From a virus, in IMG/VR virus record IMGVR_UViG_3300030098_001779, positions 18,412 to 82,411 of that record: a DNA stretch of 64,000 nt. One strand, 5' to 3'. Each line of letters starts with the position of its first letter. Positions within the stretch are counted from its first letter, which is position 1. Under the pieces are notes generated by a model that saw nothing but the letters and a program-made list of their open reading frames with translations, was not told the origin of the DNA and searched no databases. Positions 16,207 to 41,105 of this stretch are shown here, in pieces. The position numbers were made by a program, and so were the translations under genes.

Positions 16207-16236
16207 TTGACTTGGCTAGGTCAATTATGTTATAAT
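16207..16236 (+). promoter_or_regulatory. Sigma70-type promoter TTGACT-N18-TATAAT with TTGAC-N8-GTCAA palindrome
   Basis: ttgacttggctaggtcaattatgttataat. Confidence 0.75.
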
Positions 16237-26551: not shown

Positions 26552-26749
26552 ATGCCAGATATAACAGTAAGTTTTACAGATGCTCAATGGACTAGAATAG
26601 TAGCAGCAACATCTCACATAAAGGGACCATCAATAACAGATAATCCGGGAGATGTAACTGTAGATTATTTTTCTACGTTGTGGAAACAAATGGTTTCTAA
26701 TAAAGTAAAAGAATATGAAAAGCAGCAAGCATCAGTTGATGACTTCTAA
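26552..26749 (+). CDS. Small hypothetical protein
   Basis: AGGAG RBS. Confidence 0.55.
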   Translation: MPDITVSFTDAQWTRIVAATSHIKGPSITDNPGDVTVDYFSTLWKQMVSNKVKEYEKQQASVDDF

Positions 26750-27011
26750 ATTTAATAAAGAAAAAGCTCTAAAAAGTTTAGATGTATTATTTGATATATT
26801 TAAAGATATATCTACAAATGCTGACGAAGTTTTTAAAAAGAGATGTCCTTATAAAAATGCAAAGTCTAGATGTACTGCTAAATTTGAATGTAAAAATCAA
26901 TATAATATTAAGAAATTTGGAGAAAGCCCTGTTTGTACAGGATCAGATTTACTTGATTACAGACCAGCGTGGATACCAGATAAAAGATTAAATTCTAATA
27001 ATGAGACTTGA
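26715..27011 (+). CDS. Cys-containing hypothetical protein (start may be ATG 26739)
   Basis: RCPYKN...RCTA.F.C.NQ...CTGSD.LDYR.AW motif. Confidence 0.5.
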   Translation: MKSSKHQLMTSKFNKEKALKSLDVLFDIFKDISTNADEVFKKRCPYKNAKSRCTAKFECKNQYNIKKFGESPVCTGSDLLDYRPAWIPDKRLNSNNET

Positions 27012-27381
27012 TACTAAAGTAATTAAATATAGGAATCAAAACCCTTTTATGTCAACACGTCAGATTGCAAGAGAGGTTGGAGCTTCTGTAAGTTGGGTGC
27101 ATAACATATTAAAAACAGCTAACTTACCTACAAACCCACCTAAGAAGAAAAAGATTACTTATATCTGCCCAGAATGTAAACAACTTGTTAATGCTAGACG
27201 TAAATTCTGTAGTGAAAAATGTAAATACAACTATAGAAATCCTTTACTTACTTGTCATTATTGCCACGCAAAGTTCAGAAGATCTAGGTCAAGAGTAATA
27301 GCAGCCATAAAAAGAGGCTGTGATCACATATATTGTGACCAAAAATGTACAAATAGAGCAAAAAGAGACAAAATTACTTGA
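27001..27381 (+). CDS. HTH plus zinc-ribbon DNA-binding protein
   Basis: MSTRQIAREVGASVSWVHNIL HTH; CPEC, FCSEKC, CHYC and YCDQKC motifs. Confidence 0.65.
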   Translation: MRLDTKVIKYRNQNPFMSTRQIAREVGASVSWVHNILKTANLPTNPPKKKKITYICPECKQLVNARRKFCSEKCKYNYRNPLLTCHYCHAKFRRSRSRVIAAIKRGCDHIYCDQKCTNRAKRDKIT

Positions 27382-27407
27382 CACGCCTACCCCAAATATG
27401 ATATAAT
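27378..27407 (+). promoter_or_regulatory. Sigma70-type promoter TTGACA-N18-TATAAT (extended -10)
   Basis: Perfect consensus boxes with TGn before the -10. Confidence 0.8.
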
Positions 27408-27413
27408 TAATAA

Positions 27414-27595
27414 TGTATTAAGGAATAAAGTTATTATTCTGAAGTCGCCCTTGACTACAACTGAGAGTATCAGGGGCAAGAGAGAGAAACTCAGAACTCT
27501 CTCTAAGACATAGTGCGAATTAATAACATTTATTCCATTAATACAATGATACGGATGGGGAGATGCAGATAAATCATTGGATTACTGCACTCCCC
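27414..27595 (+). ncRNA. Structured non-coding RNA or leader: long bulged stem, three-way junction with kissing loops, plus a 3' hairpin
   Basis: Pairings read by eye: 27414-21/27538-45, 27422-29/27529-36, 27430-36/27521-27, 27447-54/27470-77, 27479-86/27497-504, 27557-62/27590-95, 27564-68/27585-89; loop CTGAG complementary to loop CTCAG. Confidence 0.75.
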
Positions 27596-27624
27596 TCTCT
27601 ATAAATTAATTATTAGGAGGAGAT

Positions 27625-28035
27625 ATGACAATAGCAACGAAAACAGCTGACCCTTTTGACATTTTTGCAGACTTTTTTAGTGATAAGTGGGTGGGTTCAA
27701 CAATCCACAAGTATCCATTGGATGTAATTGAATCAGATACAGGGTATGAAGTCAAAATTTCACTACCGGGTGTAGAAAAGGGTAACCTTTCTGTAACCTT
27801 AGATAAAGACACTTTAATAATAGAAGCAACAACTTCTGAAACTAAGAGTGATAAGAACAAATATTTATACAGAGGTATAAAGACAGGTTCTTATAAAAAA
27901 CATATTTCAGTAAAAGATTATGGTGTAGATTCTAAGAAGATTAGCTCTAGCTACAAAAATGGAATCTTAACTATAACTTTACCTAAACATAAAGAAGCTA
28001 AACCTCAAACAATACAAGTAGCCATGGAGAGTTAG
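27625..28035 (+). CDS. hsp20: Small heat shock protein (Hsp20/alpha-crystallin family)
   Basis: YPLDVIE...LPGV.K..L.V...YLYRGI...SSSYKNGILTITLPK. Confidence 0.92.
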   Translation: MTIATKTADPFDIFADFFSDKWVGSTIHKYPLDVIESDTGYEVKISLPGVEKGNLSVTLDKDTLIIEATTSETKSDKNKYLYRGIKTGSYKKHISVKDYGVDSKKISSSYKNGILTITLPKHKEAKPQTIQVAMES

Positions 28036-28038
28036 CAA

Positions 28039-28572
28039 ATGGAGATAAACGATGAATTGATTAGGCAATGGGAACCTAAGATTCATAAAATGCTCCAAAC
28101 ATCGTATGTAGTAGGGTATGATCGAGAAGATTTAGCACAAGAACTTAGAATCGCTATTATGAAAGCGGCTAAGGCATATAAAGCAGACAGAGGTAGCATC
28201 TTTCATACCTACTTACATACCACGATGGTAAACACGATCAGAACTTTAATCAGTAAGGCACAGAAAAAGCCTATGACTGTAAGCTATGATGAAACATTTT
28301 TAGACTATGAATCTGATTTTTTACCTGATTTTATAGCAAAAGCTATTGGATATGAGGAAGAATGGGAATTACTAGAACTAAAAGATGAATTATCAAAGTT
28401 TAATTTATCTGAACGTGAGAAAAGATTTGTTGAGTTAAGATTAGAAGGTTGGACTATGGATGAGATATCTGATGATATTGAGAAATCTGCATACAGAGTG
28501 CGTCAAAATCTTAGAACAAAGGTAGAGAAGATATTTTATGGTCAAGAGAACAAAGAAGAAGAGTCAATATAA
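28039..28572 (+). CDS. Phage RNA polymerase sigma factor (sigma70 family, regions 2 and 4)
   Basis: DREDLAQELRIAIMKA...Y...RGS.FHTY (region 2); LSEREKRFVELRLEGWTMDEIS (region 4). Confidence 0.8.
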   Translation: MEINDELIRQWEPKIHKMLQTSYVVGYDREDLAQELRIAIMKAAKAYKADRGSIFHTYLHTTMVNTIRTLISKAQKKPMTVSYDETFLDYESDFLPDFIAKAIGYEEEWELLELKDELSKFNLSEREKRFVELRLEGWTMDEISDDIEKSAYRVRQNLRTKVEKIFYGQENKEEESI

Positions 28573-38960: not shown

Positions 38961-39463
38961 TGCCTAAAAACTATCCTGAAGAAGTAAAATTAGCTGCTCT
39001 TGAATTATTTTTAGACAATAAAACAGGGGAACAAATAGCTACAATTGTAAATCAAGAGTTTGATCTTGAATTAAAAGCTCCAACTATATATGCTTGGGCT
39101 AAAAAGTATGATTGGAAAGGTGAAAATGCTTCTATGACAACAAAAGCAAAAGAGATAGTTAAAGAGAAACAAAGTCAAAGAATAGCTAGACTACAAAATG
39201 AACATCTAGATTCTTATGAAAAGATGAGAAAGAAAGCTGAATCTGAACTAGAATTTTTAGATTTTGAAAGAGCTTTTGAAGCAGTTAAAGCTATGGATAT
39301 TGGTATACAAGGTGAAAGAAAAACCATGGAAGGTATGGTAAACTTACAGTTTGTACAAGATGTTCTAAGTGTATTAGTAGAAGAAATTACAGATCCAGAC
39401 GTAATAACAAAAGTTGCAAATAGATTGCGAAGATTAGTTGCGGAGCGAGACGACATTGAATAA
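38960..39463 (+). CDS. Terminase small subunit (HTH)
   Basis: Y.EEVK..A..LF...IA...TIY.W.KKY.W; directly upstream of TerL. Confidence 0.7.
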   Translation: MPKNYPEEVKLAALELFLDNKTGEQIATIVNQEFDLELKAPTIYAWAKKYDWKGENASMTTKAKEIVKEKQSQRIARLQNEHLDSYEKMRKKAESELEFLDFERAFEAVKAMDIGIQGERKTMEGMVNLQFVQDVLSVLVEEITDPDVITKVANRLRRLVAERDDIE

Positions 39464-41105
39464 GAAAGATGAATTAGTTACATTTGATGATGCCTTTAGT
39501 AAATTAGCTGAAGGTATTACTACAGGTAATACATCATATCAAGTTGGTAGTTTCTATGAGTTTCTTAGAGATACATGGTCACAAAGTTTTGATAATCCTG
39601 AATACTTTAATGCTTGGCATGTTGGTGTTCTTGCCGATGATATTGAAGATTGTCTAGAAAAAGGTCTAAATTATGTAGCAGTGTTACCACGTTTTCATTT
39701 TAAATCTACTATTTTAGGGCATGCTTTCAGTGTTTGGAGACTATTGAAAGCTAAAAGAGACATGTCTATACTTTATTTATCTTATAGTGATGGTATGGCA
39801 AGATATCATTTACAAGAAATAAATAAAACAATAAATAGAAATCCACAATTGTTGGATATGATGGACAACCGATCTCCAAAAGCAGATTACTCATTTAGAT
39901 ACCATGTAAATAAAAAACCAGTAGAAATCATGCATGGTGGATTATTCTCTTTCAAAAGAGGTATGCATGTTAATGGTGCTTTAATTGCTGATGACGTATT
40001 GAGAGATCCTGAAAACCCTCTTAACACAGGTCAGATAACTAAGGTTGAAGATCATTTTATGACAGAAAGTTTATTCATCCCACTAAAAGGTGTACCTGTA
40101 ATTGTACTAGGTACTCCAATGATGCCGGGAGACTTACTGAGTAATTTACAAAAAGATGACAGATTTAAATCAAGAGTGTTGCCAGCGTTAGATCCAACAC
40201 CAGATAGAAGAGTATTGATGCCAGAACTATACAGTGAGAAGTGGCTACTAGATCAACAAAAAGCAAGACCTAAGTCGTTTGCTTCAGAGTTTTTGCTAGT
40301 ACCTCACTTCGCAACTGAAGCGTACTTTAGTGAAGATGACATTGTAAAATGTGAAGATGAAACACTAAAAAGCTATTCTGCACATCAAACTTTTAAAACT
40401 GAAGCAGGTGACCAATTGTTTGCAGGATTTGATGTAGGTAAAAAGAGACACCCATCTCATCTGGTTATATTTAGAAGAAGGGGTGATAAGATAGAACAAG
40501 TACATCAATCTTGGTTAGATGGATGGAGCTATTCAGATCAGATACAATATTTGAATGAAATAGCTGAAAATTACAACTTAGAGAAAGGTTACATAGATAA
40601 TACAAGAGGGGAACTAGAAGATAGAGGACTAGATCATGTCTGGCACTCTATGACATTCTCACAGAAAAGTAAACGAACTATGGCTCAGATTTTTGAAGAA
40701 TATGTATATTCTGATAATCTAACCTTAATAAAAGATGAAAGACAGAAACAACAAATATTATCTGTTAGTAATGACCTTAAAGCACCAGAGACTCCGATGG
40801 GGCATGGAGATGCGTTCTTCTCAATAGCTATGGCATTACAAGCAGCTTACGAAACAACCCTTTACAGATACGAAAGTTTAGGTAGTGCTACTGATTGGCT
40901 AGAGGCAGTATCACCTGAAGAAAAAAATACTGTAAAAGAACAAACTAAGTTACCTGACCTGTCAAAATGGACAGGAAATGAGTATAATAATAAGACAGAT
41001 AAAATACAAAAAGCCCCGAACCCAAACTGCGATGAGATGGTTTGTATGCCGAGCTTTTGGGTAGAAGAAAGAAATTTATGCCTGTACTGTGGGTACAGAG
41101 GATAG
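39438..41105 (+). CDS. terL: Terminase large subunit
   Basis: PRFHFKST Walker A variant, RG.H...LIADD Walker B, GTP motif III, GFDVG and HGDAF nuclease motifs. Confidence 0.9.
   Translation: MRSETTLNKKDELVTFDDAFSKLAEGITTGNTSYQVGSFYEFLRDTWSQSFDNPEYFNAWHVGVLADDIEDCLEKGLNYVAVLPRFHFKSTILGHAFSVWRLLKAKRDMSILYLSYSDGMARYHLQEINKTINRNPQLLDMMDNRSPKADYSFRYHVNKKPVEIMHGGLFSFKRGMHVNGALIADDVLRDPENPLNTGQITKVEDHFMTESLFIPLKGVPVIVLGTPMMPGDLLSNLQKDDRFKSRVLPALDPTPDRRVLMPELYSEKWLLDQQKARPKSFASEFLLVPHFATEAYFSEDDIVKCEDETLKSYSAHQTFKTEAGDQLFAGFDVGKKRHPSHLVIFRRRGDKIEQVHQSWLDGWSYSDQIQYLNEIAENYNLEKGYIDNTRGELEDRGLDHVWHSMTFSQKSKRTMAQIFEEYVYSDNLTLIKDERQKQQILSVSNDLKAPETPMGHGDAFFSIAMALQAAYETTLYRYESLGSATDWLEAVSPEEKNTVKEQTKLPDLSKWTGNEYNNKTDKIQKAPNPNCDEMVCMPSFWVEERNLCLYCGYRG

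Follow-up and report, generated by a model that had tools for sequence, protein, structure and literature searches.

A structured 5' leader RNA with a three-way junction and complementary loops in an uncultured marine phage

Gene neighbourhood, promoter and transcription of the leader

We analysed a window of 64,000 nucleotides from an IMG/VR virus record of 82,411 bp, estimated to be complete, in which all large open reading frames were found on the + strand. The RNA locus described here was located between the end of the tail-fibre block and an operon (the hsp20-sigma-replication operon) that encodes Hsp20, a sigma factor, a DnaB-like helicase, primase, PolA and RecA, with ribonucleotide reductase as well. 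The first gene of this operon, hsp20, spans 27625..28035 (+ strand; PF00011, 2.2e-19; phrog_432) and is followed by the gene for the sigma factor (28039..28572, + strand; regions 2 and 4), after which come the genes for the DnaB-like helicase, primase, PolA and RecA. The phage polymerase was less than 28% identical to that of any cultured phage. Searching the genome with Pfam Terminase_6N gave no match, and a PHROGs search then found a large terminase at 39438-41102 (phrog_38, 3.8e-26). A sharp mosaic boundary was observed at about 27000, downstream of which related contigs (L129, L130, L133 and L136) were 99% identical to the window and upstream of which they could not be aligned. In L136 and the L256 group, a different small zinc-ribbon gene was found to replace the 126-aa HTH/Cys-rich ORF that occupies 27001-27381 of the window.

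A promoter of the form TTGACA-18-TGaTATAAT was identified at 27378..27407 (+ strand), with a match at 12 of 12 positions and an extended -10 TG. The stop codon of the 126-aa ORF falls inside the -35 hexamer of this promoter, which was kept in all relatives, those with a short leader included. Its -10 element ends at 27407 and the long helix of the RNA begins at 27414, in agreement with a first-pass annotation of the sequence that had placed a perfect promoter about 7 nt before the helix. Seven promoters on the + strand of the window (at 16207, 27378, 28980, 34932, 43498, 51600 and 62382), which precede structural and replication genes, were observed to have a common extended consensus, roughly TTGACnnnGCTAnnnCAAATATGATAWAAT. 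This similarity points to one promoter class used genome-wide, which may be read by the host sigma-70 or by the sigma factor of the phage itself. The remaining six promoters of the class had short, unstructured leaders in the window, and a long structured leader was detected only after the promoter at 27378.

Evidence that the leader is transcribed came from two metatranscriptome contigs identical to the window, found in two marine runs (X15 and X16) of the same study. These contigs covered 27415-27619 (depth of 17.6) and 27425-27620 (depth of 10.4) and spanned both structural domains of the leader (domains I and II, described below) as one piece. The 5' edge of the RNA agrees with the predicted start and coincides with the first base of the long helix or lies 1 nt away from it, with the proviso that contigs cannot prove ends. 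The 3' stop at 27619/27620 may be a real end or an assembly break beside a strain SNP at 27622. No RNA contig covered the approximately 900 nt upstream (26591-27409) in the two metatranscriptome runs, and this upstream silence speaks against carry-over of DNA. At the end of hsp20 and in the sigma factor gene, contig depth was about 5.5-5.8, compared to which the leader contig was 2 to 3 times deeper; RNA contigs over 27621-27946 were not detected, a gap of a type that proves nothing in contig data. The proposal that a structured RNA is made on the + strand from the promoter at 27378..27407 was supported, with the contigs starting at 27415 and 27425 and none found upstream.

Predicted fold of the leader and its natural variants

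The first approximately 130 bases of the transcript (domain I, 27414..27545, + strand) were predicted by RNAfold to form a 5'-terminal three-way-junction RNA, the same structure being returned as the minimum free energy (MFE) and the centroid fold. At its base is a long helix of 26 bp, in which 27414-27439 is paired with 27517-27545 and single-base bulges (U27520, A27528 and A27537) occur on the 3' strand only. This helix leads through an internal loop of 4 x 7 nt (UGAA at 27440-43 versus AUAGUGC at 27510-16) to a 3-bp junction helix (GUC at 27444-46 with GAC at 27507-09), from which hairpin 1 (27447-27477; loop AACUGAGA at 27459..27466) and hairpin 2 (27479-27504; loop AAACUCAGAA at 27487..27496) extend, with one A between the two. 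The strands of the junction contain 0, 1 and 2 unpaired nt. All of the helices, bulges, hairpins, internal loop and junction that had been described in the first-pass annotation of 27414-27545 were reproduced by the sequence and the MFE fold. The MFE of domain I was -47 kcal/mol compared to -22.4 +/- 3.1 kcal/mol for 200 dinucleotide shuffles (z = -7.9), none of which folded as well. Furthermore, the fold of the + strand was better than that of the - strand by 1.7 to 6.8 kcal/mol in four of four natural variants. The G.U pairs of the + strand become C.A mismatches on the other strand, and both features indicate RNA rather than a DNA element.

Four sequence variants of domain I, all from the same locus in one clade, were compared. 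Of the cells in paired columns of this comparison, 97.9% were paired across the four variants, with slid-register controls falling to 38-48%. Three compensatory pairs were identified, including A-U to U-A and G-C to A-U in the long helix and C-G to A-U in the junction helix, along with changes of U.G to U-A and of A-U to G.U and one extra pair in hairpin 2 that arose by the gain of one base on each strand. The one-sided bulges were at the same positions in all variants. The internal loop was the most variable of the unpaired parts, with UGAA or UGGA on one side and AUAGUGC, AUAGUAU, AUAAUAA or AUCAUAA on the other. The covariation of the helices, which had been put forward in the first pass as a check on the structure, was therefore found in the form of three compensatory pairs and wobble-compatible changes, with the fold kept in four variants. 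As judged from these variants, the fold of domain I is shown to be held by selection at the RNA level, but the double changes all trace to one split between variant types. Paired changes in long inverted repeats can also come from template switching in DNA.

The loops of hairpins 1 and 2 carry CUGAG (27461-65) and CUCAG (27490-94), respectively, which are perfectly complementary as first described. The duplex between them would include five Watson-Crick pairs (-6.8 kcal/mol). By a post hoc test, at least five contiguous Watson-Crick pairs would arise by chance with a probability of 0.027 when random loops are drawn at genome composition and of 0.0004 when these two loops are themselves shuffled. 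Both loops were invariant in four of four variants, with the L075 type having one extra U at the 3' edge of loop 2, and no loop variants were found by scans of viral contigs, metagenomes and species-representative genomes. Targets in the phage genome with complementarity to either loop were at most 7 nt in length, which is at chance level. The simplest reading of the invariant complementary loops would be an internal kissing contact that compacts the fold.

Domain I is followed by domain II, a long irregular hairpin at 27549..27602 (+ strand; AUA-C-GGA-U-GGGGAG-A-UGCAG ... CUGCA-CUCCCC-UCU-C-UAU). A separate hairpin after an 11-nt linker had been noted in this region, which is better described as the longer irregular hairpin of 27549-27602, with most of the supposed linker taken up into it. 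Among the variants, three pairs of domain II had compensatory or wobble changes, and the domain was retained in two contigs (L136 and L137) that are devoid of the core of domain I. An AU-rich single-stranded spacer with the Shine-Dalgarno sequence AGGAGGAGA (27615-27623) occupies 27603..27624 (+ strand) and is directly followed by the ATG of hsp20 at 27625. The Shine-Dalgarno sequence was unpaired in the MFE and centroid folds, with no evident alternative pairing of more than 4 bp. A terminator was not found after domain I or domain II on the + strand.

Distribution, core loss and relation to known families

The distribution of the element was determined by pattern scans and Hsp20-based searches of viral contigs, metagenomes and species-representative genomes. 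Among the viral contigs (2.9 million) and metagenome records (241 million) scanned, the element was confined to one locus in one clade of uncultured marine phage contigs, and it was present as a single copy in the 82-kb genome. Four patterns used to scan the viral contigs gave mostly coding or random matches, and the real ones were from the same locus in close relatives. Scanning of the metagenomes added three copies of variant types that were already known (L273, L280 and L304), the other matches being unrelated. The element was absent from the species-representative genomes scanned, where five chance matches were all rejected by covariance model R1, and blastn analysis of 50,697 phage records yielded no relevant match. 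A widespread viral coding motif, …AEYQGREVKLGKPMQGDVKKFKVYVKNP…, was also matched by the search pattern in dozens of unrelated contigs (e.g., L004, L008, L010 and L022) and is not connected to the RNA.

The Hsp20-based searches included relatives of 61-69% identity (P0002-P0004). Where Hsp20 was 62-63% identical, the same promoter was found to precede a leader of just some 60 nt, in which a single small hairpin lies near +3. The Hsp20 relative P0004 (129 aa) was identical to the window protein in its C-terminal 50 residues and unrelated in its N-terminal half, and may be a chimera or an assembly artefact.

In contigs L136 and L137, which are from different metagenomes, the 108-nt core of domain I (approximately 27427..27531, + strand) was found to be gone. 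These contigs retain the promoter, domain II, hsp20 and, of the long helix, the 8-bp base around GGAATTCT. By cmsearch, positions 609-637 of L136 were aligned to model positions 1-137 with 108 positions skipped. The core has inverted ends of its own and is flanked on each side by AT. A tree of the 1.4 kb downstream placed L136/L137 as sister to a core-bearing contig within the core-bearing clade (support of 90/93), and this nested position favours loss of the core over insertion. As the core has been lost in a circulating sister lineage, it is not essential. Irrespective of leader type, every relative had a hairpin no more than about 3 nt away from the predicted 5' end, including an 8-bp hairpin at +1 in L136/L137. 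This 5'-proximal hairpin is the sole feature common to all three leader types; thus, the three-way junction appears to be an optional elaboration. With the core missing, the sequence around the transcription start of L136 (609-637), which is the same in L137, contains a 25-bp near-palindrome, TGTATTAAGGAATTCTATTAATACA, that could double as an operator.

Sequence divergence of domain I was out of step with that of its flanks. Domain I of the window differed from that of L129 at 15 of 134 positions, compared to 16 of 1475 positions downstream (p = 3e-9), and L133 and L134 were identical in domain I with differences at 163 of 1490 positions of the flanks (p = 6e-7). Based on this discordance, domain I appears to be a cassette of two main alleles that is exchanged between co-circulating lineages, and the invariant basal arms are likely to be the crossover sites.

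No Rfam family was detected at the gathering threshold by a scan of the window or by a permissive local scan, consistent with the original impression that the RNA is novel. The best local match was to Ocean-VII (RF03092), at 19.5 bits compared to a threshold of 53.5 (local E = 0.002), and the rest was noise. The element and Ocean-VII have in common GAGUAUCAGGG, 3 nt, a hairpin with an AGAG stem, and AGAC, and both are found in marine phage contigs shortly 3' of TTGACA/TATAAT promoters; a submotif common to the two is possible. True members of Ocean-VII, by contrast, scored 57.8 to 69.4 bits, were without the long helix or the pairing of hairpin 1 and were not detected by R1. Membership in Ocean-VII was rejected, with the upstream CUGAUGUC of L067 not kept in L109/L121 and no partner for GAGUAUCAGGG found there. 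The true RF03092 matches were observed to make up only the 3'-terminal 41 nt of a conserved RNA, about 200 nt in length (L067:8476-8755, - strand; L109:171-450, - strand; L121:4806-5085, + strand), which in L109 and L121 starts just after a TTGACA/TATAAT promoter. The Ocean-VII model of Rfam thus seems to capture a larger phage RNA in truncated form. A hammerhead-like core, CUGAAGUC, was also considered and rejected on the basis of a misfit at positions 6 and 9 and the lack of an Rfam match. The element is a leader RNA that is expressed and under structural constraint, and it represents a new sequence family of very narrow range.

Candidate functions of the leader

Our preferred reading, which is held tentatively and at somewhat less than even confidence, is that the element is part of a structured leader at the 5' end of the operon transcript, which it protects or helps to process in cis, and that this leader accumulates as an RNA of about 205 nt. 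Domain I would be the 5'-terminal part of an approximately 210-nt leader of the hsp20-sigma-replication operon and would act in cis, its base-paired 5' end serving as a shield of the transcript against 5'-end-dependent decay. An unusually stable cap would be provided by the compact three-way junction, which may be locked through the 5-bp contact between the loops. This cap would persist as a discrete leader RNA of about 205 nt, and the two helices of a size suited to RNase III (26 bp and about 20 bp) may be processing sites at which the leader is split from the message. The core would elaborate a simpler ancestral 5' hairpin and would have been swapped as a cassette between co-circulating phages. 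Stem-loops that stabilise bacterial and phage mRNAs at their 5' ends are known as ompA-type hairpins. The element is similar to these in its position in an operon leader and in having a helix that begins at the first or second transcribed base, but it is far larger and branched, and its invariant complementary loops would be superfluous in a stabiliser. Indeed, a simple hairpin would be enough for 5' protection, and the invariant loops and elaborate junction are not explained by a protective role.

A trans-acting phage ncRNA is an alternative that we consider unlikely. Domain I would here be released and would self-associate into pRNA-like rings or dimers through its complementary loops, or would occupy a host or phage protein, such as an immunity sensor, a nuclease or RNA polymerase, in the manner of a decoy or sponge. 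In favour of this reading, neither loop varies, compared to differences at 15 of 134 positions elsewhere, complementarity over 5 bp would seldom arise between the loops by chance (0.027 to 0.0004), contig depth is 2 to 3 times higher over the leader than downstream, and a mobile cassette with two allelic types fits a part in a specific interaction. On the other hand, no terminator follows either domain and the RNA contigs cross both unbroken, no loop target of more than 7 nt is present in the phage genome, and the core is dispensable in L136/L137. The more specific proposal that loops of freed domain I pair between molecules into closed dimers or rings that act in trans, for instance by decoying a host factor of immunity or RNA decay, is given a low probability. 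A packaging form is disfavoured by the large terminase and the lack of a match to the pRNA model, and the doubt expressed in the first-pass annotation that a packaging role would suit a terminase phage was well placed. The pRNA-like layout proposed there is right as a description, as phi29 pRNA similarly has a bulged end-to-end helix, a three-way junction, mutually complementary loops and an extra 3' hairpin domain. Membership in the pRNA family was, however, not upheld, since the RF00044 covariance model matched nowhere in the 82-kb record at E <= 10 and did not appear in the local scan, and since PolA-type replication genes and a large terminase are present. Unlike phi29 pRNA, the element belongs to an mRNA leader and is dispensable in a sister lineage. 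The phage itself, with its large terminase, primase, PolA and DnaB-like helicase, is not phi29-like, as phages of the phi29 type are protein-primed and have no terminase.

RNase III processing hairpins are known from phage operon leaders, such as T7 R0.3 and the lambda N leader, and an RNase III processing or autoregulatory site of this type is a rather improbable reading of the element. Cleavage of the 26-bp helix would remove the 5' triphosphate end and set the stability or translation of hsp20/sigma. The location in the leader of a replication operon, the length of the helix (more than two turns) and the conserved positions of its one-sided bulges in all variants are in keeping with such a site, which overlaps with the protective cis-acting leader; the long imperfect helix resembles those of T7 R0.3 and the lambda N leader, but the branched top does not, and the hairpins and loops are left without a role. 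A feature that acts at the DNA level is a still weaker candidate. This could be a palindromic operator at +1 (TGTATTAA...TTAATACA) split by a remnant of a MITE/Correia-like inverted repeat, or a transcription-primed replication origin. Correia-type elements are miniature inverted-repeat elements of Neisseria that are transcribed into mRNA leaders, and they are comparable in length (100-150 nt), in terminal inverted repeats (about 26 bp), in forming a long RNA hairpin in the 5' UTR and in a patchy occurrence among close relatives. The 25-bp near-palindrome that the arms form at the transcription start of L136/L137, with GGAATTCT in its middle, the inverted ends and AT flanks of the core, the terminal inverted repeats with a presence that varies between relatives, the cassette-like history and the adjoining replication genes are likewise compatible with such a feature. 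Unlike Correia elements, however, the element is single copy and at one locus in every collection searched, with one genomic context throughout the viral contigs and metagenome records. Moreover, the G.U pairs and strand asymmetry indicate RNA, the GC skew gave no inflection and hence no origin signal at the RNA locus, and the tree favours loss of the core over its gain in L136/L137.

Processive antitermination of the HK022 put type, in which two adjacent hairpins stay on the polymerase through a long operon, is by analogy conceivable but very improbable. The two hairpins are one base apart and come right after a strong promoter, behind which a very long series of genes lies on the same strand; yet a simple scan found 8 terminator-like sites downstream compared to 7.9 expected from shuffles, only 2 of these on the + strand, and relatives run the same operon without the element. 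Least probable of all is a riboswitch or RNA thermometer for the translation of hsp20, although the element is in the 5' UTR of a heat-shock gene and its three-way junction with possible loop-loop docking recalls purine riboswitch aptamers. The riboswitch option raised in the first pass is made unlikely by a near-empty junction (strands of 0, 1 and 2 nt) and a variable internal loop, with no conserved unpaired ligand pocket. Furthermore, the Shine-Dalgarno sequence is free in the predicted MFE and centroid folds, no terminator is present on the + strand, and no Rfam riboswitch was matched at E <= 10.

A role is known for few of the structured RNAs that phages encode, and such RNAs have scarcely been looked for in uncultured marine phages. 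The support for this element is unusual for an environmental sequence and includes a precise promoter, compensatory changes, RNA from seawater, a natural deletion allele and module exchange. Its general importance is limited by its narrow distribution and its dispensability. If the loops were to pair in trans, the alleles of the cassette would be specificity variants and the element a candidate self-assembling RNA. As a cis-acting leader, the reading that we prefer, the element is a well-defined candidate for how phages may tune the stability or processing of an operon transcript.
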